Program-made: the position numbers and the translations under genes | Shown here: in pieces, positions 47,053-63,329 of the stretch | Layout: each line of letters starts with the position of its first letter | Numbering within the stretch: position 1 is the stretch's first letter | The notes under the pieces: generated by a model | The model's database searches: none | Told to the model about the DNA's origin: nothing | Seen by the model: the letters and a program-made list of their open reading frames with translations, nothing else | DNA from: Escherichia coli | GTDB taxonomy: Bacteria > Pseudomonadota > Gammaproteobacteria > Enterobacterales > Enterobacteriaceae | Assembly (NCBI RefSeq): GCF_001677475.2 | Contig: NZ_CP015229.1 | Strand: one strand, 5' to 3' | Length of the DNA: 64,000 nt

Positions 47053-47806
47053 TTGCCTGCGCGTTTAAGCCAGCCTCGTATCAGGGGGCTGGTTTAGGCG
47101 TTTTGAATCAACGGGTTCCATGGTGTTGTTCATTTAATCACTGTTTTAGTATCAATTTTCAATAGTATCCTTTCATAGGACTACTCTGGATGCGTTCACC
47201 TTCATTGTCGCTCTAAGCAACTAGATCCTCAGAAATCTCCAGTTAGGTTGCATCCTTCCTTACACACTTTCCTGAAACTTCAGGGTAAGGTGAGAAAGCC
47301 GCCATCACTTTTTCTTATTCCAGCATCTAAATAAATTCCGAATTTTGCTATTAATATCGCTACCGCAATAAAAACAGATAGTAAAGAGAGTAATATATAC
47401 TTTAGTGATATGTTAAGAATAATTGATTGTTAACATATCTAATGGGATAAGATGTGTTTCTGTTAATGAAAATATTCAAGATTTATAGTTGATAATTAAA
47501 ATACACTCGATATCTCAGCCCTTTCTATGCAAGATGCAATTTTATAAGCTGTCCATTTTTTATATGGAGGCGGTAGCGTGTTTGTTACTCGTGATTTTAT
47601 TGGTATGGTGAATATGTTGGGATTGTTAAATACATAACGGCATATCAGTTCCGGTCATTGTAAATATGGGTAATTGCTTAATGTTATTAGTGATTACCGT
47701 TTGAAAGATAAAGAGTGCTGTAAAGCGGTGATAGACATTACATTCATGATTAAAAAACAGAACCTGTCAATAAATAATTCATTTATTAAAAAGGACGACT
47801 TCTATT

Positions 47807-48036
47807 ATGACGGAATATTATCTCAATGAGACGGTTTGCAAATACAGAGCCAGTTTCTCCGGGGTAACGAGCAGGTGTACCAGTGTCAGGTGGCATTTGT
47901 ATTGCCGGGTGAGCGGGTCATGATGGCCTTCACCTACGCCCGAACCACACCGCTGACCCCGGCAGATATGACGCGCTGGGCTGAAATTAAAAAGAATCTG
48001 CGCTTCAGGATGCGGCAGGAAGCCGGGACGAATTAA
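47807..48036 (+). pseudogene. Eag-family (DUF1795) T6SS effector chaperone, internally deleted and frameshifted
   Basis: The ATG at 47807 encodes MTEYYLNE, a typical Eag N-terminus. It runs into another frame and stops after 38 codons. The C-terminal roughly 64 codons (QVYQCQVAFVLPGERVMMAFTYARTTPL...) are in a different frame (47836-48036). The total span of 230 bp compares with about 450 bp expected. Confidence 0.7.
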
Positions 48037-48054
48037 TCACACAGGGAACGGGAC

Positions 48055-51000
48055 ATGGAAGAGGCATTCTGGGCGGCAAGGCAGGGTGATGCCCTGCTGC
48101 ATACGTCGTTTATGGCAGATGTGCTGGGGGCAGTTGTAGAGGTTGCCGCCACAGCCCTGGTGGATGTTCTGGTTGTCGGAACCATGGCGGCGCTGGGCGG
48201 AGTTGAAGTGGCAACGCTGGGCTGCTCAACCATTTTAGCGATCGGTATAGCAACAGCGGTATTTATGTCGTATCAGGGCTGGAATGACCGAATCAGTAGG
48301 GAAAGTGAGCAACTGGCGAACTGGCTTTTCCCGCCTCAGATTGAAGGTTACATCCTCACCGGCTCTGGCGACACATGGATCAACAGCAAACCTGCCGCGC
48401 GGGCCGCGGCGACTGCGGCATCGCGGCAGGACATTGAGGCGCAGGAGGCGCAGGCGAAGGCGGAACAGGAAGAAGCGCAGCGTCAGGAGGATGCCAGAAC
48501 GTTCCTGGATGTGGCCGGGGAATATCTGGAAATGGCGGGGGCCATAGCCCTGGCGGTTAACCCGGTGACAGGGCCTGTGCTGATGTCCCGGGCGCTGCAC
48601 GACCAGCTCAGTACGGAAGAAGGGCGTTCTGAAATGGTGGATGGCGTGACACATTTTGTGTCGGAACTATGGCAGCCCACCGTGGCCAGTGCGGCCCCGG
48701 GCTCCACCCCGACCCCTGACGATAAAATCGACTGCCATAAACATCCCTCCTCACTGACGCAGTTTCTCGCACAAAAAAAAGCCGCCTTTCTGGATGACCC
48801 CCTGGGAACGGCCCTTAACCTGCTGAGTCCGGGCGGTATGCTGGAAACCGCCTTTCAGGGAGTGAATGCGGTTATTGGCAGCATCAGTAATCTGTTCAAA
48901 GGCGATGATGAACCGCCCGCAGCGGAATATATCGCGGAAGGCGCGCGGGATGTGCGTATCAACAGCCAGCCGGCGGCACGCAGCGGGGCACGCTGCACCT
49001 GCGAGGCCAGGGTGGTGAATGAGCCGGGGAACGGGGCGTTTGTGTCACCGGATGTCCGCATTGGCGGTCCGTTACTGGTGGTCAGGGATATCAGAAGCGG
49101 CAGGTCGCAGATAACCCTGGTGGCAACCGTGGCGCTGATGTTTCTTCGCCCGGGCAAAATGCTTTCTAAAATCGCCTGTTTTGCTGCCAGTGTCGGGATG
49201 GGGGTGATGACGCAGAAGGCCATCAGTGCCCTTCCGCATCCGGTCAATGCCGCCACCGGAGCCAAATATCTGGCCGATGACGATGATTTTGACTTCAGTC
49301 TGCCGGGCCACTTTCCGCTGGACTGGCAGCGCGTGTACAGCAGTCGTGACGACCGCACGGAAGGGATGTTCGGGCAGGGCTGGAGTGTAATGTATGAAGT
49401 CAGCCTCGAGCGCACGCCGGGTACTGCTGACGAAAACTGTATGACCTTTGTGTCGGGCATGGGACGACGTCTGGATATGGAGGCCGTGCTGCCGGGGAGC
49501 GGGTTTTACAGCCCCGGCGAAGGACTGGCAGTACGGCGGGGTGAGCAGGGGCACTGGCTTATCAGCAGCGATGACGGGCAGTTTTTTCTGTTTGAGGCCG
49601 ACCCGCGTCACCCGCAGCGCCAGCGGCTGAAAATGCTGGGCGACCGCAACAGCAACTGTCTGAATCTGTACTACGACGAGCTGGGGCGCATCACGCAAAT
49701 CAGCGGTGAACAGCAGCGTCCGTGCATCCGTCTGCATTATGAACTGGCGGCGCATCCCCGGCGGGTGACACAGATTTATCAGCATTTCCCTGAGATGGCT
49801 CCTTTACTGCTGCGTCGTTACCGCTATGACGAGGCCGGCGACCTGAACGGCGTGTACGACAGCACGGGGCACCTGCTGCGCGAGTTTGCTTACGACGAAA
49901 ACCACTGCATGACCCTGCACCGCCAGCCGGGCGGCGAAGGGTATTATTACCAGTGGGGCTGGTATGAAGGCCCGGATGACGCAGCGTGGCGGGTGACGGG
50001 GCACCACACGGACAGCGGTGAACAGTACCGGCTGGCGTGGAGCCTGGCGGCACGCAGGCTGTGCGTGACGGACGGGCTGGGGCGCACGCGTTATCATCAG
50101 TGGGACGCGCAAAATCAGGTGACGGCGTACCAGGACGAAGCCGGGCAGGTGACGACGTTCCGCTGGAGCGACGAAGAACGGCTGTTACTGGGAATGACCG
50201 ATGCGCAGGGCGGCAAATGGCGCTATGTGTATGACCGGCAGGGGCATATCACGGAGACGCACGACCCGCTGGGGCGGGTGGCACAGACACAGTGGCACCC
50301 GGTGTGGCACCAGCCGGAAACGGAGGTGGACGCGGCGGGGAACAGCTGGTGCTGTGAGTACGATGAACGCGGCAATCTTCTTGCGGTGACCGACCCGCTG
50401 CAGCAGAACACCCGGTATCAGTATGACCGCCACGGCCAGGTGGTGCAGATAACGGATGCGCGCGGGGGGAATAAATACCTTCAGTGGAACGAAGACGGGC
50501 AGCTCATGCGGCACACGGACTGTTCCGGCTCGCAGACGGCCTGGTTCTACGACGAACGCACGCGGCTGATACGGATGACAGACGCGCAGAGCCACAGCAC
50601 GCGCTACGGGTATGACGACAGCGGCCACCTGACGGAGGTGATACTGGCGGACGGCCGCACGGTGAATTACCAGTCGGACGCGGCGGGCAGGCTGGTGAAG
50701 TACACCAGCCCGATGGGGAGGATAACGCGCTGGCAGCGGGACGGGCAGGGCCGGGTGCGCAGCCGGACAGACGCGACGGGGCGCAGGACGGCGTTCGGGT
50801 ACGATGCCTACGGGCGTCTGGTCACGCTCACGAACGAGAACGGAGAAAGCTACCGGTTCCGCCATGACGTGCTGGACCGTCTGGCGGAGCAGATAAATCC
50901 GGACGGCTGCCGCCAGACGTACCGCTACAACGCGCTGAACGCGGTCACGGAAGTGGTGTTCACCGGGGACCGGGGCGGTGAAATCCGCCACCGGCTGGCA

Positions 51001-52737
51001 CGTGATGCGGCGGGCCGGCTCACGGCAAAGGAGACAGCCGATGGCCATACGGAATACGTCCATGATGCGGCAGACCAGCTACTGGAAATCCGCCGCCGAC
51101 GGTCGGATGCCGGGGAAACAGACGCACCGGAGATTATCCGTTTCAGTTACGACAGACTGGGGCGGATGCTGACCGAGGAGACGGCGCAGGGCGTCCTGAC
51201 CCATCAGTACGATGAACTCAGCAACCGGACAGCCACCACCTTTCCGGATGGCAGAACGCAGCGTCATCTGTACTACGGCAGCGGCCATCTCCAGCAGATA
51301 AATCTGGACCGGGAGGTCATCAGCGAGTTCACACGTGACGCCCTGCACCGGGAAGTGCTCAGAAGTCAGGGGCGACTGAGCACGCGGCAGCTTTATGACC
51401 CCGCCGGGCGGCTGAAGCGCAGGGAGACATACAGCGGGATGCGCGGGGTGGTACCGGAGACGTTCACGGACCGGCAGTACAGCTACAGCGGCGAGGATGA
51501 ATTGCTGAAGACGCGGCACAGCCGGCGGGGGGAAACGGATTACTTCTACGACCCCACGGGGCGCATCACGGCGTGCCGCTCGGAGGATGAGAGGTATCTG
51601 GCGAGCTGGCAGTACGACGCGGCGGGAAACCTGCTGGGGAGGCGCGCGGGGGAAAGGGCCACGGCAGAAAACAGCGTGGTGCCGTTCAACCGGCTGATGT
51701 CTTACCGTGGTGTGCACTACCGTTATGACGAATTTGGCCGGACGGTGGAAAAGGAGGGCCGGAGCGGCACGCAGAGTTACCGTTATGATGCGGAACACCG
51801 GATGGTGGAAGTGACGACAGCGCGGGGGACATACCGGTATGTGTACGATGCGCTGGGGAGGCGGACGGAAAAACAGCACATCAGCCCTGACGGTAAACCG
51901 TACAACCGGACGACATTTTTATGGGACGGAATGCGGCTGGCGCAGGAGAGCAGGCCGGAGGGAATAAGCAGCCTGTATATCTACAGCGACCCGGGGAGTT
52001 ATGAACCGCTGGCGCGGGTGGATAAGGCGGGCAAAGAGGGCCCGAACCGGATACTGTATTTTCACACGGATGTGAACGGTGCGCCGGAAGAGATGACGGA
52101 CAGTGACGGGAAAATCGTGTGGGAGACGGGGTATCAGGTCTGGGGTAACACGATACAGGAGAAGGACCACGGCGGGGTGGAGCAGAACCTGCGCTACCAG
52201 GGACAGTACCTCGACAGGGAAACGGGGCTGCATTACAATCTGCACAGGTACTATGATCCGGATGTCGGGCGGTTCATGGTAACGGACCCGATAGGGCTGG
52301 CGGGGGGACTGAATCTTTACCAATACTCACCGAATCCAATAAGTTGGATCGACCCGCTGGGATTAACAGGGGAGTGGGTTAATCCCAAAGATATTAATTT
52401 TTCTCAAAGAACAATATCACCTCATGATTATGCCGATATTATGCGTAATGGTGGTTGGGATTGGGACAGGTCTCCATTAAGAGTAATTGATATTGATGGG
52501 CAATTAGTTTCTTATGATAATAGGCGATTAGACGCAGCTCTAGAGGCCGGATTAGATAAGGTTAAAGTCATTAGAGTTGACCCTAATGCTCCTCATCCTG
52601 ACTCATCTACTGGAAAAACATGGTTACAAAAATTCCGAGAGAGATTTAGAGATCGAAGAAATATAAAGGCCGGTGGAATAGTACCAGATAAAGGATTAAA
52701 TTCTCGACCGGAAAGAACATCAAGAGGTTGCAAATGA
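48055..52737 (+). CDS. Full-length prePAAR/PAAR-Rhs (YD-repeat) polymorphic toxin with C-terminal ParB/Srx-like toxin tip
   Basis: 1560 aa. The AARQGDALLH prePAAR motif lies at 48073-48102. Two hydrophobic TM regions flank PAAR-like segments. A long GC-rich YD-repeat core follows. The core-end motif PNPISWIDPLGL has DPLGL at 52351-52365. An AT-rich 123-aa tip follows. Confidence 0.93.
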   Translation: MEEAFWAARQGDALLHTSFMADVLGAVVEVAATALVDVLVVGTMAALGGVEVATLGCSTILAIGIATAVFMSYQGWNDRISRESEQLANWLFPPQIEGYILTGSGDTWINSKPAARAAATAASRQDIEAQEAQAKAEQEEAQRQEDARTFLDVAGEYLEMAGAIALAVNPVTGPVLMSRALHDQLSTEEGRSEMVDGVTHFVSELWQPTVASAAPGSTPTPDDKIDCHKHPSSLTQFLAQKKAAFLDDPLGTALNLLSPGGMLETAFQGVNAVIGSISNLFKGDDEPPAAEYIAEGARDVRINSQPAARSGARCTCEARVVNEPGNGAFVSPDVRIGGPLLVVRDIRSGRSQITLVATVALMFLRPGKMLSKIACFAASVGMGVMTQKAISALPHPVNAATGAKYLADDDDFDFSLPGHFPLDWQRVYSSRDDRTEGMFGQGWSVMYEVSLERTPGTADENCMTFVSGMGRRLDMEAVLPGSGFYSPGEGLAVRRGEQGHWLISSDDGQFFLFEADPRHPQRQRLKMLGDRNSNCLNLYYDELGRITQISGEQQRPCIRLHYELAAHPRRVTQIYQHFPEMAPLLLRRYRYDEAGDLNGVYDSTGHLLREFAYDENHCMTLHRQPGGEGYYYQWGWYEGPDDAAWRVTGHHTDSGEQYRLAWSLAARRLCVTDGLGRTRYHQWDAQNQVTAYQDEAGQVTTFRWSDEERLLLGMTDAQGGKWRYVYDRQGHITETHDPLGRVAQTQWHPVWHQPETEVDAAGNSWCCEYDERGNLLAVTDPLQQNTRYQYDRHGQVVQITDARGGNKYLQWNEDGQLMRHTDCSGSQTAWFYDERTRLIRMTDAQSHSTRYGYDDSGHLTEVILADGRTVNYQSDAAGRLVKYTSPMGRITRWQRDGQGRVRSRTDATGRRTAFGYDAYGRLVTLTNENGESYRFRHDVLDRLAEQINPDGCRQTYRYNALNAVTEVVFTGDRGGEIRHRLARDAAGRLTAKETADGHTEYVHDAADQLLEIRRRRSDAGETDAPEIIRFSYDRLGRMLTEETAQGVLTHQYDELSNRTATTFPDGRTQRHLYYGSGHLQQINLDREVISEFTRDALHREVLRSQGRLSTRQLYDPAGRLKRRETYSGMRGVVPETFTDRQYSYSGEDELLKTRHSRRGETDYFYDPTGRITACRSEDERYLASWQYDAAGNLLGRRAGERATAENSVVPFNRLMSYRGVHYRYDEFGRTVEKEGRSGTQSYRYDAEHRMVEVTTARGTYRYVYDALGRRTEKQHISPDGKPYNRTTFLWDGMRLAQESRPEGISSLYIYSDPGSYEPLARVDKAGKEGPNRILYFHTDVNGAPEEMTDSDGKIVWETGYQVWGNTIQEKDHGGVEQNLRYQGQYLDRETGLHYNLHRYYDPDVGRFMVTDPIGLAGGLNLYQYSPNPISWIDPLGLTGEWVNPKDINFSQRTISPHDYADIMRNGGWDWDRSPLRVIDIDGQLVSYDNRRLDAALEAGLDKVKVIRVDPNAPHPDSSTGKTWLQKFRERFRDRRNIKAGGIVPDKGLNSRPERTSRGCK
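50912..52299 (+). repeat. 1388-bp direct repeat, copy A (rhs core 3' part)
   Basis: Aligns without indels to 60705-62092 at a constant offset of 9793 nt. Only four amino-acid differences separate the translated copies. Confidence 0.9.
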
Positions 52738-53168
52738 AAAATATTATTCAGTTATGGGAAGATGGTTTATTACCGATAAAAGATGCTATTTACTTTTCTA
52801 ACGGTGAATCTTTCCTTTGTAAAATAACATCTTACCCTACTCCTTGTATTGAGAAAAATGGTGAGTTTGATTTCTCTGCCTTTTATGAAAAAAATAAAGA
52901 TGAAGTTACTGATATTGATAAGTCTAGAGAAGTTAAATTAGCGAATAATTGCTATTGTTGCATTGGAGAAGGTAGTTATGGTTCTGAAGGATTTATCGCA
53001 TATCTCGATGAAAATAAAAACTTAGTTTGGGTTCTTTATTCCGAAGAATCTAATCCATTTATTAATATAACTGAATATACATCTGATATTATTATAGTAG
53101 AATCAAGTTCTAATATTAGACTAAGAATAAATATAAACAATCCAGTGGATTTAGAATTGGCATTTTAA
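52734..53168 (+). CDS. Cognate Rhs immunity protein (RhsI), family unknown
   Basis: 144 aa. Its ATG overlaps the rhs stop (ATGA at 52734-52737) and an SD aagagg lies upstream. AT-rich like the toxin tip. Confidence 0.75.
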   Translation: MKNIIQLWEDGLLPIKDAIYFSNGESFLCKITSYPTPCIEKNGEFDFSAFYEKNKDEVTDIDKSREVKLANNCYCCIGEGSYGSEGFIAYLDENKNLVWVLYSEESNPFINITEYTSDIIIVESSSNIRLRININNPVDLELAF

Positions 53169-53170
53169 AT

Positions 53171-53208
53171 AAAAAGCCGGGTGAAATTAAATCTTCCCGG
53201 CTTTTTTA
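53171..53208. terminator. Cassette hairpin H1 (bidirectional terminator shared by rhsI and the symE-like gene)
   Basis: aaaaaGCCGGGtgaaattaaatcttCCCGGCtttttt. Confidence 0.75.
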
Positions 53209-53212
53209 TTAT

Positions 53213-53542
53213 TTAACTCTCGTTCAGCACACTAAACATCCCGTTCCGCATCCCCTTAACCACCTGTTTAACCTGATAAAGTTCTTCCCGCAGCTCCTGC
53301 ACCTCGTCACTGTCAGCGATGATGGTCAGGTACCCCTCCGAAATCTTCACCGTGACACCCCGCCCGGTATCAAATCCCGCCTCAGCCAGCCAGTCGCCCT
53401 TGAGGTGCAGGCTGGGATGTTGTGAATAATACCGGGCTATACCTGTTGTGCGGTCCTGGTGGCGGGTTCTGACATAGCCGACTTTATAGCGGCGCTGGGT
53501 TTTGGAAATGGTGACTTCTGGCGTAATATCGTGTTCAGCCAT
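53213..53542 (-). CDS. SymE-family (AbrB/SpoVT-fold, type I toxin-like) protein, intact copy
   Basis: 109 aa. The segment HLKGDWLAEAGFDTGRGVTVKISEGYLTII aligns with remembered K-12 SymE [32 protein letters not shown]. An SD aggag lies 7 nt before the ATG. Confidence 0.75.
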   Translation of the reverse strand: MAEHDITPEVTISKTQRRYKVGYVRTRHQDRTTGIARYYSQHPSLHLKGDWLAEAGFDTGRGVTVKISEGYLTIIADSDEVQELREELYQVKQVVKGMRNGMFSVLNES

Positions 53543-53616
53543 GATTAACTACTCCTGTTAGTTGCTTGTGGTGAGCGGCTGTTACAGGCGGCAACCTGTA
53601 GCAGTCGCGTTAAATA

Positions 53617-53760
53617 TCAACGCATTACCTTCATTACCTGCTTCATCTTCTCCTGGGTGATCGCCATATCCAGAATACGGCAGATCACTTCCTGATCGTC
53701 TGCTTTAAGCTCATCAACCTGCTTACACAGTTCTTTTAACCGCTTGTTTTTTATATCGAA
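53617..53760 (-). pseudogene. 3' fragment of an unknown gene upstream of symE-like copy 1, apparently cut by the GC-rich fragment
   Basis: The minus frame reads ..DIKNKRLKELCKQVDELKADDQEVICRILDMAITQEKMKQVMKVMR* (stop at 53617-53619). There is no start codon. AT-rich sequence ends abruptly at about 53760. Confidence 0.3.
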
Positions 53761-54861
53761 AACATCGCGGAAGAAGAAGGTGTGCGCCAGGCGGCCTACG
53801 CGCTCAAGCTGTTGCAGTCGGACGGGGAACTGACCATCGCCAGTACGGGCAAGGATGACGCCAGCGGTAACCTGGTCACCAAACAGTATACGGTGAAAGG
53901 CCCGGTGATGCTGATGCTGACCACCACCGCCATCGATGTTGACGAGGAGTTACTCAACCGCTGTCTGGTGCTGACGGTGAACGAATCGCGGGAACAGACG
54001 GAAGCTATCCACGCGGCGCAGCGTTACGCGCAGACGCTGGAAGGACTGCTGGCGGCTAACGAAAAAAGTTACATCACGCAGCTTCACCAGAACGCGCAGC
54101 GGCTGCTGCGCCCGCTCAACGTGGTGAACCCGTTCGCCTCGCAGCTCACGTTCATGAGCGACAAAACCCGCACCCGGCGCGACCACATGAAATACCTGAC
54201 GCTGATCCAGGCGATCGCCCTGCTGCACCAGTACCAGCGGGAGATCAAGCGCGTGGAGCATCGCGGGCAGGTGGTGGAGTACATCGAGGTCACGCGGGAG
54301 GACATCGCCCTGGCGAACCGCCTGGCACATGAAATACTCGGGCGCACCCTGGATGAAATGCCGCCGCAGACGCGCAAACTGTTAACCCTGATCCAGCAAT
54401 GGGTGAGCGACAGCGGTCAGGCGCGTGAGGCGATGCGGTTCACCCGTAAACAACTGCGTGACGCGGTACAGTGGGGCGACACGCAGCTCAAGATCCACCT
54501 GGCGCGGCTGGTCGAAATGGAATATCTGCTGGTCCACCGTCTCGGGCTGACGTTCTGCTATGAACTGCTGTTCGACGGGGACGGCAGCGCAGACACCGCG
54601 CACCTGTGCGGGCTGATCGACGTACCGGAACCACCGTATGACGTCGCCCGGTCGGGGGAAACGGTGAAGCAGCTGGCCTCTGGTCGGGCAGTGGTCGGCG
54701 GTCAGTCGGGTAAGGAAAAAACCGCCTCAGACCAGACACCACGAGGCTTACAGGCCGGAGCGGTCGGGGCAGAGGAAAAAGCCCTGTTCCGGCAGAACGC
54801 AAAAAAACCGTCCCGCAATCATACTGCGGCCCGTCCGGGCCGGAGCAACACGGAAGCATAA
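53761..54861 (+). pseudogene. 5'-truncated gene of a GC-rich mobile element (large conserved protein, function not assignable here)
   Basis: The ORF reading ..IAEEEGVRQAAYALKLLQSDGELTIASTGKD... has no plausible native start. Composition changes sharply at about 53760. It is followed by a tyrosine recombinase gene. Confidence 0.55.
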
Positions 54862-54895
54862 GTACGACTTCATCCGGTCGGGGCAACGGCTGCAA

Positions 54896-54939
54896 TAGTC
54901 GGCCCCTGGTCGGCAGTCAGTCGGCGGGTAGTCGGGGTG
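54896..54939. repeat. Four tandem 11-bp iteron-like repeats containing GTCGG
   Basis: tagtcggcccc / tggtcggcagt / cagtcggcggg / tagtcggggtg. A fifth GTCGG lies at 54877-54881. The repeats lie between the truncated gene and the recombinase gene. Confidence 0.7.
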
Positions 54940-55065
54940 CGTAAAACCCCCGCAGGCCGCGCCCGGCAAGGTTCAGGCCATGAAGCGGTCGGCCTGCCTG
55001 AAAATCACTGTTCCATCCTCTGTTCTTCTCTCTGTCGTACCGTAATCTCAATCAGGACAATCATC

Positions 55066-56095
55066 ATGACAAAACCCATCCCTCCGGGGCCGGAGGAACT
55101 TTACCTCAGCCGCCAGAACCTGACGCAGCGCCAGTATGTGGTGGTGTGGCTGGAATACCTGACGGCACAGAACTACAGCGCGATCAGCGTAAGCGACTAT
55201 CGCGAACGGGTGTTACCGTTCGTGACATGGTGTGAGGAGCGCGGGCTGATGTACGCGCCGCAGGTCAGCCAGCCGCAGCTTGAAAGCTATCAGCGCCACC
55301 TTCACGGCTACCGTAAGGCGGACGGCCATCCGCTGGCGGTCAGCGGTCAGGTGGGCCGGATAAGCGCGATAAAAATCTTTTACCGCTGGCTGCTGAAGCG
55401 GCATGTGATCCTGTACAACCCCGCCGATCTGCTGGAACTGCCAAAGCCGGACAAACGGCTTCCGGCGCAGGTGTTCAGTAAGGGCGAGACGCGGCAGGTG
55501 TTACAGAGCCTTGATATCAACACGCCCGTTGGCCTGCGCAACCGGACAATCCTTGAGGTGCTGTGGAGTACCGGGATCAGGCGGATGGAGCTGGCCAGCC
55601 TGATGTTGTGGGATGTTGACACCGGGCGCGGTGTGGTTAACGTGCGGCAGGGTAAGGGGCGTAAGGATCGGGTGGTTCCGGTGGGCCATGTGGCGCTGGG
55701 ATGGCTGGCAAGACGTGCGACCACAGATGACGCGCCAGCGCGACAGTGGTCATCTGTTCGTGACGAAATACGGCAGCGGGATGAAACGCAACACGCTGAC
55801 GGCGATGGCAGGCACCGCGATCCGGGAAACGGCACGGATCGACAAACCGGGCGCGTGCCATATCTTCCGGCACTCGATGGCGACGCAGATGCTGGACAAT
55901 GGCGCAGACACGCGGCATATCCAGGCGATCCTCGGCCATGAGAAGCTGGAGACGACGCAGATCTACACGAAGGTGGCCATAAAGCCGTTGCAGAAGGTTC
56001 ATGCGCGGACGCACCCGGCAGAGAAGCGGCGAAGGGAAAAGCGCGTGCAGCAGCCGGACGAGGCCACCGTATCGCCGGACAGCCTGAAAAGTTAG
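55066..56095 (+). pseudogene. Tyrosine recombinase (XerC/D-like integrase), frameshifted
   Basis: MTKPIPPG...TGIRRMELASL...[12 protein letters not shown] is in one frame. After about 55710 the homology continues in the +1 frame ([36 protein letters not shown]). The catalytic Arg is therefore separated from the HxxR and Tyr residues. Confidence 0.8.
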
Positions 56096-56260
56096 GTGGC
56101 GATCCCTGTAAGGCCGTGGGGTGCGGTGCAGGGCAGACAACCGCCTTCCCTGGCGGTTGACTGCCCCCTGCCAGCGGCGTGCGCGGGGGTAAATGCCGTC
56201 CGCCCCGTGGAGGCAGCCGCGCCCCATGCGACCATGCAGCACGGGGCAAACGTCATTCAA

Positions 56261-56352
56261 CATAATGCGGATTATGCGCACTCTCGCCGGTCGGCAATGA
56301 CGGCGAACCCGATCCGCTGTGCGCGGCTCGTGTTCGCACAATCCGCATTATG
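56261..56352. repeat. Imperfect 20-bp inverted repeat with a 52-bp spacer
   Basis: cataatgcggattatgcgca (56261-56280) against the reverse complement of ttcgcacaatccgcattatg (56333-56352). 18/20 positions match, including 13 contiguous. Confidence 0.7.
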
Positions 56353-57005
56353 TCTGACGCCCCCGCGTTCAGCCCCGTGGTCCGTGCAGCGCAAAGCTTC
56401 GCTGGCGCTCCGCTCTGCTGCCGGGTGCGGTGTTCTTCTGTGGCCCCGCAGTCGCCGCCATCCCTGGCGGCTCCGGTGCCGTTCTGCGGCAGCGTCATCG
56501 TGTGGCAGTCAGTCAGAAAAGGGTGTCGGCCTGGCGGCCTCCGCTTGTAAGGGCTTTATGCCCGCCCGGCGTCGTCTGGCTGCGGCGGCTCGTGCCGCGC
56601 AAAAAGGCCGCGCGTCACTCGTTCCCGCCTCGCCAGCTTCCGCTGCCCGCCCCGGTCAGGTGTGGTCATGCAAAGGCAACCCCCGGTCAGGCAGCGGTGC
56701 CACAGAGCGCCGTTCCGTCGCTTGCGGACTCTCTGCCGCCCGCACCCGCAGACCCCGCGCCGTGGCCCCGCCATGCCGCCGGAGGCGTCCTGGCGGCCCC
56801 CCGTCACGGGGTGCCGGAAACGGACTTAGTGGAAAGCGGAATGACAGGCGGTGGTGGTGGTGCTATGGTGAGCGGGCGTGAAAATGCGCGTCGGGAAAGT
56901 CGGGTTAACGTGCTGTTAAATAAGTAAAAGGTGATAGCCGGGAAGCCAGAAACGGCGCGGGCGGTAGCGTGTTAAAAAGTGTGACCTGCACCGGATCGTT
57001 CCGAT

Positions 57006-57515
57006 GACCCGATAGGACTGCGGGGTGGATTAAATCTCTATCAATATGCGCCGAATCCGTTGAGCTATATTGATCCTCTTGGCCTTTGTAAATTAAGGGG
57101 AAGTAATGGGCGCTTCAGAAGTGCTCAGAATATTCAGGAAGAAATAGGCGGACTACCTAATTTTTCAGGGAAGACTCCAGGGCAAATACGACAAACTTTG
57201 CGTAATCGAGTTTATTCGTCGGTACAAGCGCATAGTGGTGGAGAGGTCTGGACAAAAGCATTACCTGACGGAAATACTGTTGCTGTGAGAATTGACCCGG
57301 CAAATCCTCGCTCACCTTCACATTATGCTGATGCTGTGCCTCATGCTCATATTGAAACAGTTCCAACGTCCAGTGTTTCTAATGGGAATTATCGCCCACG
57401 AGACGTGACTGGCAGGCATACTGCCACTGGTGGGATTTCTGACCGAGGAACGAATCCGAATCATAATGCTGATGTTCACATTCCAATGTCTCCGGGACGA
57501 TTCCCATATAATTAA
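57006..57515 (+). CDS. Orphan Rhs C-terminal toxin 1 (core stub + CT domain of unknown family); no own start codon
   Basis: [27 protein letters not shown] is followed by a 143-aa AT-rich CT. The frame opens just after a TGA, with only an internal TTG at 57060. Confidence 0.75.
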   Translation, partial: DPIGLRGGLNLYQYAPNPLSYIDPLGLCKLRGSNGRFRSAQNIQEEIGGLPNFSGKTPGQIRQTLRNRVYSSVQAHSGGEVWTKALPDGNTVAVRIDPANPRSPSHYADAVPHAHIETVPTSSVSNGNYRPRDVTGRHTATGGISDRGTNPNHNADVHIPMSPGRFPYN

Positions 57516-57526
57516 TGTGAGGTTTT

Positions 57527-57790
57527 ATGAATATCCGAAATCAATATAATGAAGCCTTAAATAAATTAGAAGTTGATGTTAATGATGGTTTAAGAGATTT
57601 AATAAACATATATTGTGTAGCTATTGATTCTTTTGAAAATGATATCGTTGACTCGATTGCTTTATACGTGATTGATATGGGAAATAAAGATACTTGTCGA
57701 TATCTACAAGAAATATTATCAGAGAATGAAGATCCTTATTTAGTAAAAGAATTTAATGCATGGATGAAAGAAATTAAGAAAAAATATTAA
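57527..57790 (+). CDS. Orphan immunity protein 1
   Basis: 87 aa. It begins 11 nt after the toxin stop with an SD gagg. AT-rich. Confidence 0.7.
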   Translation: MNIRNQYNEALNKLEVDVNDGLRDLINIYCVAIDSFENDIVDSIALYVIDMGNKDTCRYLQEILSENEDPYLVKEFNAWMKEIKKKY

Positions 57791-57793
57791 AAT

Positions 57794-57831
57794 AAAAGCC
57801 GGGACGGTTATTAAATCTTCCCGGCTTTTTT
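57794..57831. terminator. Cassette hairpin H2
   Basis: aaaaGCCGGGacggttattaaatcttCCCGGCtttttt. Confidence 0.75.
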
Positions 57832-57836
57832 ATTAC

Positions 57837-58070
57837 TTAACTTTCGTTCAGCACACTAAACATCCCGTCACGCATTCCCTTAACCGCCTGTTTAACCAGA
57901 TAAAGTTCCCTGCGCAGTTCCTGTACTTCGTTGTTATCCGCAAGCAGGATCAGACATCCTTCCGAGATCTTCACGGTGACGCCCGTGCCGATCTCAAATC
58001 CCGCTTCTCTCAGCCATTTTGCGCTGATTTTGATTACCGGCGTGTCGCTGCGGTTGGGCAGATAACCCAC
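57837..58070 (-). CDS. SymE-family ORF, copy 2, lacking a canonical start upstream of the conserved N-terminal segment
   Basis: 77 aa from an in-frame GTG. The frame stays open upstream to 58154 and encodes the conserved ISKTQRHCTVGY segment, but contains no ATG/GTG/TTG or SD there. Confidence 0.5.
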   Translation of the reverse strand: MGYLPNRSDTPVIKISAKWLREAGFEIGTGVTVKISEGCLILLADNNEVQELRRELYLVKQAVKGMRDGMFSVLNES

Positions 58071-58376
58071 GGTACAGTGGCGCTGTGTTTTGGAAATGAT
58101 ATTCTTATATTTAATCTGCTGATTAGATAGTAAAATTAACTTCGTGCAGATAGCTTACTTTATCAGGGTGCGGCGGTAGTGTATGAACTATGACGTGATG
58201 GTTTTAGTGATTTATATACGAAAATGACAGTACGATCCGGACTTCGAATAGATTGCGCGATTTGACCCGATAGGGCTGGCGGGGGGATTAAATCTCTATC
58301 AATATGCGCCTAATCCGTTAAGTTATATTGATCCACTTGGATTGTGTCCTAAAACTGACTTTAAATGGGGAAATCC

Positions 58377-59667
58377 CAGGGAAAGATCACGTAATGCTGC
58401 TTTTTTGTACTAAACAATTCGCATTTTATGTTTAAAAATTGAGATATTCCTCATTACATAAAGCTGTTTTTTATTGCTTATACATGATCAAATACTCCTT
58501 ACATAATTAAGGAGAACAAAATGGAACTTAAAAAATTGATGGAACATATTTCTATTATCCCCGATTACAGACAAGCCTGGAAAGTGGAACATAAATTATC
58601 GGATATTCTACTGTTGACTATTTGTGCCGTTATTTCGGGTGCAGAAGGCTGGGAAGATATAGAGGATTTTGGGGAAACACATCTCGATTTTTTGAAGCAA
58701 TATGGTGATTTTGATAATGGTATTCCTGTTCACGATACCATTGCCAGAGTTGTATCCTGTATCAGTCCTGCAAAATTTCACGAGTGCTTTATTAACTGGA
58801 TGCGTGACTGCCATTCTTCAGATGATAAAGACGTCATCGCAATTGATGGAAAAACGCTCCGGCATTCTTATGACAAGAGTCGCCGCAGGGGAGCGATTCA
58901 TGTCATTAGTGCGTTCTCAACAATGCACAGTCTGGTCATCGGACAGATCAGGACGGATGAGAAATCAAATGAAATTACAGCTATCCCTGAACTTCTTAAC
59001 ATGCTGGATATTAAAGGAAAAATCATCACAACTGATGCGATGGGTTGCCAGAAAGATATTGCAGAGAAGATACAAAAACAGGGAGGTGATTATTTATTCG
59101 CTGTAAAAGGAAACCAGGGGCGGCTAAATAAAGCCTTTGAGGAAAAATTCCCACTGAAAGAATTAAATAATCCAGAGCATGACAGTTACGCAATTAGTGA
59201 AAAGAGTCACGGCAGAGAAGAAATCCGTCTTCACATTGTTTGCGATGTCCCTGATGAACTTATTGATTTCACGTTTGAATGGAAAGGACTGAAGAAATTA
59301 TGCGTGGCAGTCTCCTTTCGGTCAATAATAGCAGAACAAAAGAAAGAGCCAGAAATGACGGTCAGATATTATATCAGTTCTGCTGATTTAACCGCAGAGA
59401 AGTTCGCCACAGCAATCCGAAACCACTGGCACGTGGAGAATAAGCTGCACTGGCGTCTGGACGTGGTAATGAATGAAGACGACTGCAAAATAAGAAGAGG
59501 AAACGCCGCAGAATTATTTTCAGGGATACGGCACATCGCTATTAATATTTTAACGAATGATAAGGTATTCAAGGCAGGGTTAAGACGTAAGATGCGAAAA
59601 GCAGCCATGGACAGAAACTATCTCGCGTCAGTCCTTGCGGGGAGCGGGCTTTCGTAATCTTGCCCTG
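58377..59667 (+). mobile_element. ISAs1-family element (Rhs-associated H-repeat), 1291 bp
   Basis: Terminal IRs are CAGGGAAAGATCACGTAA and TTACGAAAGCCC..(rc CAGGGCAAGATTACGAAA). A perfect 10-bp target duplication GGGGAAATCC lies at 58367-58376 and 59668-59677. Confidence 0.9.
58521..59657 (+). CDS. ISAs1-family (H-repeat-associated) transposase
   Basis: 378 aa, starting [51 protein letters not shown]. Matches remembered YbfL/YhhI-type proteins. Confidence 0.92.
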
Positions 59668-60010
59668 GGGGAAATCCAAAAAGTAAGCCTACATACGGTC
59701 ACACATTTTCTGAACACGGACAGAAAATGAAACCAAGTCAGTTAATTGATCGTGCCAGAAATAAAGGTCATCAAGTAGGACAATATCTCGATGATAATTC
59801 TGCTGCTGATTTTATTGCTTCTGTTGCCAAAAAAGGTCCGGGTGTGCATGATGTGCCATTGCCTACAAATATAAAAGGTCGAGGTTATTTGCCTGATGGG
59901 ACAGAGGTCGTTCCAGATATGGCAAGGGTTGTTGTAAAACCCGATGGTTCTGTACGAACATCGTTCCCATTCAATTCATCACACACCAACTAAAGTAATG
60001 AAGGGTATAT

Positions 60011-60391
60011 ATGAATGAAATAGATAAGATCTGTAGTGAACTTGGCGTACCAGTTGGTGATAAGTTTACACAAGATTGGGCTTATGAACTGCCTGAAAAA
60101 TATCGAACTAAAGAGTGGCTAAGTAAATACATTGCTGCATACTTAAACAATGGCTACTCCCAAAAAGGGAAGACTGAATTAATGACTTTAGCCCTTGATG
60201 TCTGTAATGATTTATTATCTTCTGGAGTACCCCCATCAGATGAGGTTATTATAAAAGTACTCAACGCCCTGCGTGATAATTACAAAAATCATATAGATCT
60301 TATTAATTATTGGTCCTTGGATGATGAATCTTTAGATGACAGTTTTGCATTAACTCCTGAAATAAGGGAGCTAAAAAGAAGATTGATTTAG
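60011..60391 (+). CDS. Orphan immunity protein 2
   Basis: 126 aa. It begins 17 nt after the toxin-2 stop with an SD aaggg. Confidence 0.7.
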   Translation: MNEIDKICSELGVPVGDKFTQDWAYELPEKYRTKEWLSKYIAAYLNNGYSQKGKTELMTLALDVCNDLLSSGVPPSDEVIIKVLNALRDNYKNHIDLINYWSLDDESLDDSFALTPEIRELKRRLI

Positions 60392-60413
60392 GATTATAAT
60401 ATTATTAAGTTAT

Positions 60414-60447
60414 AAAAAGCCGGGAATATAATCTTCCCGGCTTTTTT
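60414..60447. terminator. Cassette hairpin H3
   Basis: aaaaaGCCGGGaatataatcttCCCGGCtttttt. Confidence 0.75.
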
Positions 60448-60452
60448 ATTAT

Positions 60453-60677
60453 TTAACTCTCGTTCAGCACACTAAACATCCCGTCACGCATCCCCTTAAC
60501 CGCCTGTTTAACCTGATAAAGTTCCCTGCGCAGTTCCTGTACTTCGTTGTTATCCGCGAGCAGGATCAGGCAACCTTCCGAGATCTTCACGGTAACGCCC
60601 GTACCGATCTCAAATCCCGCTTCTCTCAGCCATTTGGCGCTGATTTTGATCACCGGCGTGTCGCTGCGGTTGGGCAG
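60453..60677 (-). pseudogene. SymE-family gene, copy 3, 5'-truncated at the junction with an rhs core fragment
   Basis: Identical to copy 2 apart from one residue, back to ..LPNRSDTP. Homology stops at about 60677, where rhs-core-like sequence begins. Confidence 0.75.
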
Positions 60678-60704
60678 ATGCTGCGCTGGCAGCACGACGG
60701 CAGA

Positions 60705-62518
60705 GCCAGACGTACCGTTACAACGCGCTGAACGCGGTCACGGAAGTGGTGTTCACCGGGGACCGGGGCGGTGAAATCCGCCACCGGCTGGCACGTGATG
60801 CGGCGGGCCGGCTCACGGCAAAGGAGACAGCCGATAGCCGAACGGAATACGTCCATGATGCGGCAGACCAGCTACTGGAAATCCGCCGCCGACGGTCGGA
60901 TGCCGGGGAAATGGACGCACCGGAGATTATCCGTTTCAGTTACGACAGACTGGGGCGGATGCTGACTGAGGAGACGGCGCAGGGCGTCCTGACCCATCAG
61001 TACGATGAACTCAGCAACCGGACAGCCACCACCTTTCCGGACGGCAGAACGCAGCGTCATCTGTACTACGGCAGCGGCCATCTCCAGCAGATAAATCTGG
61101 ACCGGGAGGTCATCAGCGAGTTCACACGTGACGCCCTGCACCGGGAAGTGCTCAGAAGTCAGGGGCGACTGAGCACGCGGCAGCTTTATGACCCCGCCGG
61201 GCGGCTGAAGCGCAGGGAGACATACAGCGGGATGCGCGGGGTGGTACCGGAGACGTTCACGGACCGGCAGTACAGCTACAGCGGCGAGGATGAACTGCTG
61301 AAGACGCGGCACAGCCGGCGGGGGGAAACGGATTACTTCTACGACCCCACGGGGCGCATCACGGCGTGCCGCTCGGAGGATGAGGGGTATCTGGCGAGCT
61401 GGCAGTACGACGCGGCGGGAAACCTGCTGGGGAGGCGCGCGGGGGAAAGGGCCACGGCAGAAAACAGCGTGGTGCCGTTCAACCGGCTGATGTCTTACCG
61501 TGGTGTGCACTACCGTTATGACGAATTTGGCCGGACGGTGGAAAAGGAGGGCCGGAGCGGCACGCAGAGTTACCGTTATGATGCGGAACACCGGATGGTG
61601 GAAGTGACGACAGCGCGGGGGACATACCGGTATGTGTACGATGCGCTGGGGAGGCGGACGGAAAAACAGCACATCAGCCCTGACGGTAAAGCGTACAACC
61701 GGACGACATTTTTATGGGACGGAATGCGGCTGGCGCAGGAGAGCAGGCCGGAGGGAATAAGTAGCCTGTATATCTACAGCGACCCGGGGAGTTATGAACC
61801 GCTGGCGCGGGTGGATAAGGCGGGCAAAGAGGGCCCGAACCGGATACTGTATTTTCACACGGATGTGAACGGTGCGCCGGAAGAGATGACGGACAGTGAC
61901 GGGAAAATCGTGTGGGAGACGGGGTATCAGGTCTGGGGTAACACGATACAGGAGAAGGACCACGGCGGGGTGGAGCAGAACCTGCGCTACCAGGGACAGT
62001 ACCTCGACAGGGAAACGGGGCTGCACTACAATCTGCACAGGTACTATGATCCGGATGTCGGGCGGTTCATGGTAACGGACCCGATAGGGCTGAGAGGCGG
62101 ATTAAACTTATACCAATACGCGCCTAATCCGTTAAGCTGGATCGATCCTCTTGGATTAAGTGCCGCCTCTGATTTACCTCAATTAAAAGGAAGATCCCCA
62201 GGGGCAATAGGTTCTATTCTTACTGATAATGGATTCAATTTAGATAAACAAACAAGTACCGGGAATCAGACTTGGAGCCACGCCGATGGTTCTAAAGTTC
62301 GTGTCGATCCCTATGGAAACCAAAGTATGACTATGAAAAACGGTGATCCATTACCGAAATCAGGAGCTAACGCACATGTGCATAAATATGATCCCGGTGA
62401 GATACCGCTGAATGACAGAGGCATTCCGAGTACAAATCCAAATGAAACACATATAGGGATCAGGAATCCAAATGATTATTCTACAAAACGAGGGCGGGCC
62501 CATGGGTGCGGCGTATAA
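60705..62518 (+). CDS. Orphan Rhs fragment 3: 1.39-kb core 3' segment (direct repeat copy B, 60705-62092) plus a distinct CT toxin
   Basis: The translation is near-identical to main Rhs residues from QTYRYNALNAVTEVVFT to VTDPIGL. It then diverges: [22 protein letters not shown] followed by a 119-aa CT from 62159. The 5' side (60678-60704) is a scrambled YD fragment in another frame. The only start is an internal GTG at 60746. Confidence 0.85.
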
Positions 62519-62530
62519 GGTAAGAAATTA

Positions 62531-62815
62531 ATGAGTGTTGAATATGTTATACATGTCGATGATAAAGTAGATAATTTACTTTCTTTTATTGTCGAGAGAA
62601 TAAAGGAAAATCAACCATCCTCTCGAATTAATACTGACGGTTCACTTTGGATTCCATCTAGCTATTCAAATTGGATTGATTTTTCAATAGAAGACCATGA
62701 GGATGGTTTTTTTATTGTAAATAATTTAAATGGAAGTGATAGAGATAAATTATTTTCACTGATATTTACTGCCTTTCATGAATTATCTATAAAATATGAA
62801 ATAGAAGAAGTCTAA
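62531..62815 (+). CDS. Orphan immunity protein 3
   Basis: 94 aa. It begins 12 nt after the toxin-3 stop with an SD aagg. Confidence 0.7.
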   Translation: MSVEYVIHVDDKVDNLLSFIVERIKENQPSSRINTDGSLWIPSSYSNWIDFSIEDHEDGFFIVNNLNGSDRDKLFSLIFTAFHELSIKYEIEEV

Positions 62816-62817
62816 TG

Positions 62818-62897
62818 AAAGCCGGGTTTTTGGACTGACCCCATAAAGTTGGACACCCAACTGATTAAGGTGCAGTCCAACATATTCCCGGCTTTTT
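62818..62897. terminator. Cassette hairpin H4, with its loop expanded by a 49-bp insertion
   Basis: aaaGCCGGGtttt[49 bp]acatattCCCGGCttttt. Confidence 0.6.
62831..62879. mobile_element. Miniature IS150-group/IS1397-like element (49 bp)
   Basis: TGGACTGACCCCATAAAGTTGGACACCCAACTGATTAAGGTGCAGTCCA has termini TGGACTG / CAGTCCA. It aligns with the first roughly 50 nt of the IS at 1044-1094 (TGAACTGCACCCCAAATGTTGGACA...GAAGGTGCAGTT). Confidence 0.6.
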
Positions 62898-62902
62898 ATT
62901 AT

Positions 62903-63136
62903 TTAACTCTCGTTCAGTACACTAAATATCCCGTCACGCATACCCTTAACCACCTGTTTAACCTGATAAAGTTCCCTGCGCAGTTCCTGTACTTCGTTGT
63001 TATCTGCAAGCAGGATCTGGCAGCCTTCCGAGATCTTCACGGTAACGCCCGTGCCGATCTCAAATCCCGCTTCTCTCAGCCATTTTGCGCTGATTTTGAT
63101 TACCGGCGTGTCGCTGCGGTTGGGCAGATAACCCAC
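62903..63136 (-). CDS. SymE-family ORF, copy 4, lacking a canonical start upstream of the conserved N-terminal segment
   Basis: 77 aa, differing from copy 2 at 4 residues. The upstream conserved but start-less segment is the same as in copy 2. Confidence 0.5.
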   Translation of the reverse strand: MGYLPNRSDTPVIKISAKWLREAGFEIGTGVTVKISEGCQILLADNNEVQELRRELYQVKQVVKGMRDGIFSVLNES

Positions 63137-63329
63137 GGTACAGTGGCGCTGTGTTTTGGAAATGATATTTTTGTATTTAACCTGCTGATTAGATAGTAAA
63201 ATAAACTTCGTGCAGATAGCTTACTTTATCAGGGTGTGGCGGTAGCGTATGAACTATGATGCGGTGGTTTCAGGAATGTACGTACAAAATCGATAGTACG
63301 ATCCTCCAATCAGGTAGATTTGCTGCCCT

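Follow-up and report, generated by a model that had tools for sequence, protein, structure and literature searches.

The window analysed here, a 64-kb stretch (64,000 nucleotides) of Escherichia coli contig NZ_CP015229.1 (assembly GCF_001677475.2), carries the Escherichia kdp-ybfA rhs island, in which a main rhs gene is followed by orphan cassettes of Rhs toxin tips and immunity genes. One short motif recurs ahead of the main rhs gene and of three orphan stubs (the DPxGL codons at which a toxin tip begins), and the question raised by this locus is what that motif does there. A sequence-only reading had offered a relic of an ancestral junction, a promoter or operator for genes on either strand, or a recombination site. 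Our analysis indicates that the motif is very probably the operon polarity suppressor (ops) element (consensus GGCGGTAGnnTG), the recruitment signal for RfaH, a NusG paralogue, which would be loaded there before the rhs operon and three of the orphan cassettes. The functional unit is 12 nt rather than 11, and its four copies are as follows:

47569..47580, plus strand: ops site 1, GGCGGTAGCGTG, canonical 12-mer
56960..56971, plus strand: ops site 2, GGCGGTAGCGTG, canonical 12-mer
58172..58183, plus strand: ops site 3, GGCGGTAGTGTA
63238..63249, plus strand: ops site 4, GGCGGTAGCGTA

The pattern GGCGGTAGYGT has exactly four matches in the window, all on the plus strand, starting at 47569, 56960, 58172 and 63238, which bears out the positions given by the sequence-only reading; a window scan with a looser ops pattern, GGCGGTAGNNT, returned the same four sites and no others. 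The distances given there were also correct when recomputed, with 486 nt from site 1 to the rhs ATG at 48055 (and 238 nt to the start of a degenerate eagR), 46 nt from site 2 to the DPIGL codons of orphan 1 at 57006, and, at sites 3 and 4 alike, 92 nt to the DPIGL codons of the stubs at 58264 and 63330. Shuffled sequences give 0.09 expected matches, and none of 100 shuffles reached four. The argument that four such 11-mers are unlikely by chance holds for the fixed pattern, which is rare (about 0.1 expected), but sites 3 and 4 duplicate a single module, and we estimate that about 2.5 exact triples of some 11-mer or other would turn up post hoc in 64 kb. Because the chance argument is weak on these two counts, the case rests on position, strand and conservation elsewhere.

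The leader said to be common to cassettes 2 and 4 is real, as 58071-58238 and 63137-63304 are 88.7% identical across 168 nt; we refer to this type as class B. Of the flank alignments tested against shuffles, only that of site 2 with sites 3 and 4 on the upstream side is significant (TTAAC..TGCTG.TTA..AGTAAAA, z 4-6), and there the site 2 and class B leaders have common and colinear blocks. The flanks of site 1, aligned in the same way against shuffles, had no homology to the other sites beyond a 14-mer.

A literature search with the motif string returned papers on RfaH, and the identification as ops followed from these. In the published consensus (GGCGGTAGnnTG/GGCGGTAGCGTG), G4, G5, A7 and G8 are essential, C3 and G8 can pair, and T6 is flipped; polymerase pauses at U11, where a non-template C3:G8 hairpin shows G5 and the flipped T6 to RfaH (PMC5995543). 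Substituting G4, G5, A7 or G8 abolishes RfaH recruitment and changes to C3 or T6 cut it about threefold, while G12C loses the pause and keeps recruitment (PMC5995543). Sites 1 and 2 match the consensus at 12 of 12 positions and sites 3 and 4 at 11 of 12, with A12 as the difference and positions 1 to 8 and T11 intact. The element functions solely from the non-template strand, and ops-like sites within translated open reading frames (ORFs) are unbound. In agreement with both rules, the four copies lie on the plus strand, like rhs, the stubs, the toxin tips and the immunity ORFs, and none is covered by a plus-strand ORF of at least 50 aa (from the ORF list, predicted translation only).

A parallel for RfaH occupancy comes from strain CFT073, where chromatin immunoprecipitation sequencing (ChIP-seq) found RfaH bound at GGCGGTAGCGTA, 313 nt 5' of c1882/tssI and beside ansP, and also at the kps ops GGCGGTAGCATA, an A12 variant (PMC9765446, Data set S2A). 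The 12-mer of site 4, GGCGGTAGCGTA, is identical to this RfaH-bound c1882 ops. Read directly, the CFT073 site is GTGCAGATcatgtcATCAGGGTAGGGCGGTAGCGTA, and its context is the same as that of sites 3 and 4, namely GTGCAGATAGCTTACTTTATCAGGGTG(C/T)GGCGGTAG(T/C)GTA.

The sequence-only reading had staked its proposal on the motif being kept at equivalent positions in other arrays, and counts and alignments across arrays show that it is. Our sample comprised 77 loci encoding symE relatives, taken from one genome per species (1.03 Mb), and a stub was called orphan if it had fewer than 150 open codons upstream. In these loci GGCGGTAGNNT has 27 matches against about 8 expected; 15 of them lie within 200 nt 5' of orphan stubs on the same strand (15/43 stubs) and six more lie in the same leader types, compared with none upstream of the 34 stubs that are continuous with an Rhs core. 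When five E. coli loci and the window were added, a motif with at most one mismatch was present within 200 nt 5' of 24/53 orphan stubs and 0/40 core-continuous stubs, the best upstream match among these 40 having three mismatches. Every leader copy in the related loci is co-oriented with its stub. Motif and stub are 46 nt apart where the XerC-element spacer ends and 91-92 nt apart in class B, and further spacing classes are 67, 102 and 144-146 nt. Site 1 is also present in E. coli M3, EC9 and E. ruysiae.

Class B leaders were found in Escherichia, Entomohabitans, an Erwinia metagenome-assembled genome, Kosakonia, Citrobacter, Superficieibacter and an uncultured Enterobacteriaceae genus. Across 18 aligned copies GCGGTAG (ops positions 2 to 8) never changes, 17 of them retain T11, and positions 10 and 12 are variable. 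Among ten divergent copies, mean pairwise identity over a 500-nt stretch peaks at the ops window (0.94), above the symE coding sequence, the stub, and the relic of an Rhs core that separates motif from stub; that relic and the 5' half of symE have drifted to 0.3-0.65 identity. This column pattern is the one expected of a working ops, suggesting purifying selection on the bases that RfaH contacts. Identity to ops, placement on the non-template strand, position in a leader, selection on the bases contacted and homology to a leader occupied by RfaH are established; by analogy with the homologous CFT073 leader, which carries the RfaH ChIP signal, we infer that the window sites would likewise depend on RfaH.

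The element extends beyond symE-linked arrays. A second island of E. coli D6 (vgrG-eagR-rhs beside ansP) carries gtGCAGATtaagatATCAGGGTGGGGCGGTAGCGT 262 nt 5' of its first gene, and a BLAST search with this upstream region gave matches in 4620 of 5426 complete E. coli genomes, at one to three places each. Among the matches are the rhsE locus of K-12 and a vgrG-rhs locus linked to cusS, which read ..GTGCAGATcatgtTATCAGGGTGG(G/A)GCGGTAGC(G/A)TATATT, and given this spread the motif is a general feature of Rhs/VgrG operon leaders. A second ops-like site, GGCGGTAGTTT, was seen in CFT073 (locus L092, 11531-11541) deep in the RfaH-bound VgrG island, before small hypothetical genes. Reiterated ops elements may thus be general in type VI secretion system (T6SS) effector/immunity arrays, beyond those of Rhs.

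In the K-12 waaQ leader ops lies in a canonical JUMPstart, CAGGTAGCTgttgagCCTGGGGCGGTAGCGTG, which as a positive control scored 55.2 bits with the Rfam model RF01707. Site 2 has the arrangement GGTGATAGCCgggaaGCCAG-N10-GGCGGTAGCGTG, whose RF01707 match ends exactly at ops (18.4 bits, E 0.62) and which also occurs in E. coli D6, E. ruysiae, Kosakonia and Enterobacter; the corresponding JUMPstart-like block of sites 3 and 4 is GCAGATAGCttactttatCAGGGtgtGGCGGTAGCGTA. By sequence, then, the window leaders resemble JUMPstart and fail membership of RF01707, and an Rfam scan of the leaders gave nothing besides this weak match at site 2.

Several observations weigh against a loading role for these sites. 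Sites 3 and 4 have A12 in place of the G12 that is required for the U11 pause, orphan 3 has no ops, and in related loci just those 15 of 43 orphan stubs have one. The stub-proximal copy is degenerate in distant XerC-type leaders (Erwinia tracheiphila, Buttiauxella), and, as many of the copies share descent and the loci were chosen through symE, the counts cannot be treated as independent. A JUMPstart-like flank is missing at site 1, site 2 falls short of the RF01707 gathering score of 35 bits and of its 5-bp stem followed by GGGCGGUAGCGUG, and site 3 gave no match to that model at E up to 10. A promoter consensus scan found nothing adjoining sites 1 to 3, and the promoters ahead of sites 2 to 4 are consensus-level guesses. 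Finally, the CFT073 island was RfaH-bound solely in a strain lacking hns and stpA (PMC9765446).

The surroundings of the four sites bear on how they might work. The island begins with ybfA, followed by an AT-rich leader with site 1, a degenerate eagR, rhs, its immunity gene and a minus-strand symE-like copy 1; then come a decayed helix-turn-helix (HTH)/primase/XerC-like element, a GC-rich spacer, site 2, orphan 1 and symE-like copy 2; and it ends with the site 3 leader, orphan 2 with an ISEc1, symE-like copy 3/orphan 3, symE-like copy 4, the site 4 leader and orphan 4. The cassettes have a GC content of 32-47%, compared with 59-67% for the core, and are set apart by hairpins and T runs that are common to the convergent symE. 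The individual features are:

47807..48036, plus strand: degenerate eagR (DUF1795/DcrB-related chaperone gene); the sequence shows an internal deletion or a frameshift
48055..52737, plus strand: main rhs gene, 1560 aa, PAAR-like N terminus
52211..52239, plus strand: sigma70-like site TCGACA-17-TACAAT, internal, at the 3' end of the rhs core
52728-53168, plus strand: immunity ORF of the main rhs, from the ORF list
53213..53542, minus strand: symE-like copy 1, full length, 109 aa, ATG start
53537-53611, plus strand: SymR-like antisense region (symR 39 bits, under the gathering score)
53543..56959, plus strand: remnant of an HTH/DnaG-like primase/XerC-like recombinase element with GC-rich spacer, ending at site 2
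56922..56971, plus strand: JUMPstart-like leader, ..GGTGATAGCCGGGAAGCCAG-N10-GGCGGTAGCGTG, ending in site 2
57006..57790, plus strand: orphan cassette 1, with DPIGL stub at 57006, toxin tip ORF to 57515 and immunity ORF 57527-57790
57798-57825: terminator-like hairpin after orphan cassette 1
57837..58103, minus strand: symE-like copy 2, canonical ATG and 5' end lost
58110..58183, plus strand: class B leader of cassette 2, TTTAAT..TGATT..TAAAAT..GTGCAGATAGC..TATCAGGGTG, then site 3 GGCGGTAGTGTA
58184..58263, plus strand: relic of an Rhs core 3' end, degenerate, with TAG/TGA stops in frame; the stub of orphan 2 is next at 58264
58377-59667: ISEc1 inserted in orphan 2
60453..60680, minus strand: symE-like copy 3, cut short and fused directly to orphan 3
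60683-62518: orphan 3, rhs core fragment to which symE-like copy 3 is fused; this cassette is without ops
62004-62032, plus strand: second TCGACA-17-TACAAT copy, in orphan 3
62903..63169, minus strand: symE-like copy 4, without canonical ATG
63176..63249, plus strand: class B leader of cassette 4, ending in site 4 GGCGGTAGCGTA
63250..63329, plus strand: degenerate Rhs core 3' end, MNYDAVVSGMYVQNR-stop-YDPPIR-stop-ICCP; the orphan-4 stub is next at 63330

The degenerate eagR retains only about 10 recognisable codons at the N-terminal end and 40 at the C-terminal end, whereas related strains have a 150-aa gene, and homologues are annotated intact in loci L003, L004 and L084; given this decay, the main Rhs may not be deliverable in this strain. 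The TCGACA-17-TACAAT site is near consensus and is encoded by the core-end codons L-D-R...H-Y-N. Its predicted start at 52247 lies 89 nt upstream of PxxxxDPxGL, matching the start position of the Salmonella P2 promoter, which was mapped by experiment (PMC7043789).

An ops element needs a promoter to feed it, and the candidates are an invariant TAAAAT that stands 35 nt upstream of ops in the 18-copy class B alignment, a remnant of the SymR promoter, and read-through from upstream (at site 2, from the primase/XerC genes). Partial matches to the small RNAs (sRNAs) Ssr1 and isrA indicate that relatives make plus-strand RNA over the symE antisense region. In vgrG/rhsE-type leaders TTATCA-16-TATATT spans ops; the motif was accordingly tried as a sigma70 spacer, which fits the rhsE-type and cusS-type leaders and was rejected, as the -10 is not conserved in L085 or class B. 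The proposal that the motif is a promoter or operator for the plus-strand orphan and immunity genes was right in calling it a plus-strand transcription signal and wrong as to its kind, since ops acts on elongation and not on initiation or repression. Other candidates were also discarded. RNAalifold on the 18 leaders gave -3.5 kcal/mol with zero compensatory pairs, leaving no structured RNA, ARAGORN gave no tRNA that would support a tRNA-like attachment site, and on inspection by eye no dif-like, integron-like, sigma54 or LexA-box reading fits. An exact 11-nt inverted repeat was noted between CCTGATAAAGT in the 3' coding part of symE and ACTTTATCAGG just before ops (62962-62972 and 63223-63233), and also at copies 1 and 3; long-range mRNA pairing of its arms was rejected, as they do not covary over the 18 copies.

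If the sites work as ops does elsewhere, a rightward polymerase on the plus strand would transcribe ops and pause at U11, and the non-template strand would fold into the C3:G8 hairpin, exposing G5 and T6. RfaH would then bind, displacing NusG, and the polymerase would gain resistance to pausing, Rho and H-NS/StpA filaments (PMC9765446), allowing it to complete the 4.7-kb rhs operon (site 1) or an AT-rich toxin-tip and immunity cassette (sites 2 to 4). RfaH loaded upstream would be lost at the terminator-like cassette-end hairpin shared with the convergent symE-like gene, so each cassette would need an ops loading site of its own. The compact leader of sites 3 and 4 (TTTAAC..TAAAAT..GCAGATAGC..CAGGG..ops) would form a portable promoter and JUMPstart-like ops module, which would keep displaced tips, and chiefly their immunity genes, transcribed. 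We propose, as a speculation that may well prove wrong, that orphan tips travel with this portable leader, each as an RfaH-dependent, H-NS-resistant unit retaining immunity after C-terminal displacement, and that the leader doubles as a shuffling patch across arrays and genera and perhaps as a landing zone for ISAs1/H-repeat elements. Such landing would explain why H-repeats co-occur with Rhs elements and O-antigen clusters.

The same leaders could instead be passive hitch-hikers, descended from the 5' leader of a complete VgrG/Rhs element that has otherwise been deleted (the remaining leader, vgrG, eagR and most of the core), with ops elements left as scars that no longer load RfaH. We consider this improbable, though it draws on several features of the island. 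Class B corresponds by homology to the final ~40 nt of the conserved block ahead of complete vgrG/rhs operons, sites 3 and 4 lack G12, and the neighbouring symE copies lack an ATG, which suggests general decay. Class B is also directly followed by a degenerate Rhs core end, which in the DPIGL frame reads RMNYDAVVSGMYVQNR-stop-YDPPIR-stop-ICCPDPIGL after sites 3 and 4. TIGR03696 recognises this relic with E values from 1e-9 to 1e-13 (2.7e-10 at site 3 and 8.6e-13 at site 4), its alignment starting 0-10 codons past the motif (4-8 at site 3), and the positions of the stop codons are common across genera (a TAG within ops, then TAG or TGA). The ops elements of divergent copies nevertheless form the regional maximum of conservation, with RfaH contacts among the invariant bases, in the midst of a relic and a symE 5' half that have drifted, and the A12 variant is RfaH-bound in CFT073 (PMC9765446).

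The relic also bears on how far the motif itself marks an ancestral junction. The 81 nt between motif and stub at sites 3 and 4 are indeed a degenerate core end, as that proposal would have it, but the motif is absent from every intact core end in the samples (0/40 and 0/34). A hand alignment that took the motif for R-Y codons of a decayed Rhs core was likewise rejected, as intact cores are without the motif and alignments to the TIGR03696 and NF041261 profile models end at its 3' edge. An ATG begins at ops position 12 and opens a frame of 14-15 codons (MNYD...), and this start codon is not kept in every copy.

Even less probable, in our view, is that the motif and its flank are the place at which cassettes are exchanged, either as a site for the XerC-like recombinase or as a homology patch for RecA. 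Mosaics do break there. Cassette 4 combines a symE and leader of the cassette-2 type (0.93-1.0) with a relic of the Citrobacter/Superficieibacter type (0.73-0.79 vs 0.65), L011a is mosaic in the opposite sense, homology among the upstream regions of different islands stops at the motif, and a XerC-like gene (NF002331, 533 bits) lies ~900 nt 5' of each site-2-type copy. Breakpoints, however, are expected at any conserved patch between variable DNA, and ISEc1 insertions account for several of the homology breaks, among them a break at the motif, seen in hundreds of E. coli genomes, that we had considered as a mobile-element junction. The first XerC element of E. coli D6 has the motif at its right end only, and the insertion boundary relative to E. 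coli M3 falls in the DPxGL stub rather than in the motif. No inverted-repeat core, inverted arms or dif-like site was seen on reading the sequence, which thus lacks the marks of a tyrosine-recombinase attachment site (the same core at both ends, with inverted arms round a 6-8 bp overlap), and exchange would leave the ops identity and the strict strand bias unexplained. From the proposal of a recombination site there remain the coincidence of mosaic breakpoints with the motif and a XerC-like element that ends beside site 2; with the D6 element one-ended, nothing that we tested supports site-specific crossover.

The XerC-like element is of interest in itself. A block of symE, an RstR-like HTH gene, a DnaG-like primase gene (P-loop), the XerC-like recombinase gene (NF002331, 533 bits) and a GC-rich spacer of ~900 nt stands between successive Rhs tips, at times in tandem, at window positions 53543-56959 (91% coverage compared with intact 5.5-kb elements), in L005 (5077-10860 and 11710-17493) and in L002/L085 (E. 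coli D6), and 62 of 5426 complete E. coli genomes carry it. Relative to strain M3, the inserted DNA spans from one DPxGL stub to the next, as would be expected of a block that brings in a new tip through C-terminal displacement.

ISEc1, an H-repeat of the ISAs1 family, ends very near ops in several independent configurations (L088 at 5130; L004 at 9517 and 10817; L003 at 9549; L092 at 1274; and the window copy at 58377-59667, whose near end is 194 nt downstream of site 3). In about 660 genomes it ends inside ATCAGGG just 5' of the ops position, with the downstream island, including ops, deleted; other ends lie 22 nt 5' of ops, 3 nt 3', and 9 nt 3' at the RfaH-bound CFT073 site. This closeness may reflect a target preference. 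H-repeats have long been associated with Rhs elements and O-antigen clusters, and the two associations might be related.

That the motif regulates the minus-strand symE-like gene, as a promoter, an operator or the end of a SymR-like antisense RNA, was put forward by the sequence-only reading and finds some encouragement in its position 70-100 nt upstream of the symE-like coding sequence at sites 3 and 4 and, in Brenneria (L053), 19 nt from a canonical ATG of symE, at a place where the 5' arm of a hairpin stands in a sister copy, but we regard it as highly improbable, since the motif lies on the template strand for symE and ops acts from the non-template strand only, it also occurs with no symE nearby (site 1, L007 at 67 nt, vgrG leaders), there is no conserved RNA structure, these leaders have no Rfam symR match and the neighbouring symE copies lack start codons.

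The symE-like genes showed further peculiarities. Copies 2 and 4, two of the four, have lost the canonical ATG and ~10 5' codons, and in E. coli R32_14_1F (L001) the RefSeq start of the equivalent gene is placed one codon before a conserved Ser, where the DNA reads ATT. A hairpin at 53578-53607, 5' of the ATG-bearing symE and inside the weak SymR match, has arms that differ among genera with complementarity kept (class A loci, by eye), and the hairpins of ATG-bearing symE genes look like a SymR-like antisense RNA family wider than the Rfam model. Partial matches to Ssr1, a Shigella sRNA, and Salmonella isrA lie on the plus strand at 57760-58100, 62668-63166, 60062-60707 and 53105-53512, antisense to every symE-like copy and ending at the symE 5' end. 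These published sRNAs may be intergenic transcripts between immunity gene and symE, and not separate genes.

Comparison with known systems places the window sites, read as ops, closest to the RfaH regulon (waaQ (rfaQ), rfb/wzx, wza, hlyCABD, kps, F tra). The 12-nt element is the same, sites 1 and 2 being the waaQ ops, as are the strand rule and the setting in an untranslated leader of horizontally acquired AT-rich DNA, and sites 2 to 4 are preceded by (G/A)TAGC...C(A/T)GG blocks like the 5' part of JUMPstart. Those operons, however, serve envelope or secretion genes and have one ops per long operon, whereas the window sites precede Rhs toxin tips and immunity genes with one ops per short cassette of ~1-5 kb, fail the JUMPstart covariance model and, at sites 3 and 4, carry A12.

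Within the T6SS, the closest relative is the ops of CFT073 c1882-tssI (PAAR-VgrG) (Hustmyer et al. 2022, PMC9765446), which shares its 12-mer with site 4, has a homologous flank (GTGCAGAT..ATCAGGGT.GGGCGGTAGCGTA) and lies in H-NS-bound effector DNA. Its 313 nt to the first gene are comparable to the 238 nt from site 1 to eagR, but it heads a complete effector island, and sites 2 to 4 head truncated, promoter-less-looking orphan tips within an array. In the Sci1 T6SS of enteroaggregative E. coli, ops1 and ops2 are likewise intergenic among T6SS-related genes, and mutation showed them to be needed for downstream transcription (bioRxiv 10.1101/2025.02.08.637259); unlike the window sites, they sit between structural and accessory genes. 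RfaH control of T6SS has thus been published for uropathogenic (PMC9765446) and enteroaggregative E. coli (bioRxiv 10.1101/2025.02.08.637259), and neither text mentions Rhs or orphan cassettes.

The internal P2 promoter of Salmonella main and orphan rhs genes (Starsta et al. 2020, PMC7043789) resembles ops in that it transcribes tip and immunity gene apart from the full-length gene, and its equivalent in the window is the TCGACA-17-TACAAT of intact core ends. P2 is an initiation signal in the coding core, however, whereas ops is an elongation signal in a non-coding leader, and at sites 3 and 4 the P2-equivalent sequence sits in the degenerate relic downstream of ops. Integron attC and recombinase-associated immunity arrays share with the window short cassettes split by a conserved non-coding element and an Xer-family gene nearby. 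Compared with attC, the window element is without an imperfect palindrome and R'/R'' core sites, and it is a transcription signal with no sign of recombinase action.

Judged by its sequence, the element itself is ordinary and known, and what appears to be new is its placement and reiteration. Literature searches for RfaH, ops and rhs together, and for Rhs with SymE or with tyrosine recombinases, found nothing relevant, and we know of no report, in the literature searched, of ops being reiterated ahead of orphan Rhs tips or of its standing where a XerC/primase element ends. For annotation, an ops no more than about 150 nt upstream of a DPxGL stub would serve as a marker of orphan cassettes and their leaders. 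RfaH is known to control capsule, lipopolysaccharide, haemolysin and conjugation genes and, more recently, those of T6SS (PMC9765446; bioRxiv 10.1101/2025.02.08.637259). If the sites described here work, RfaH would also be a master switch for reserve Rhs toxins and, more importantly, for orphan immunity genes. This would answer how promoter-less-looking orphan cassettes in H-NS-silenced DNA come to be expressed, and it would join interbacterial immunity to the cell-envelope regulon.

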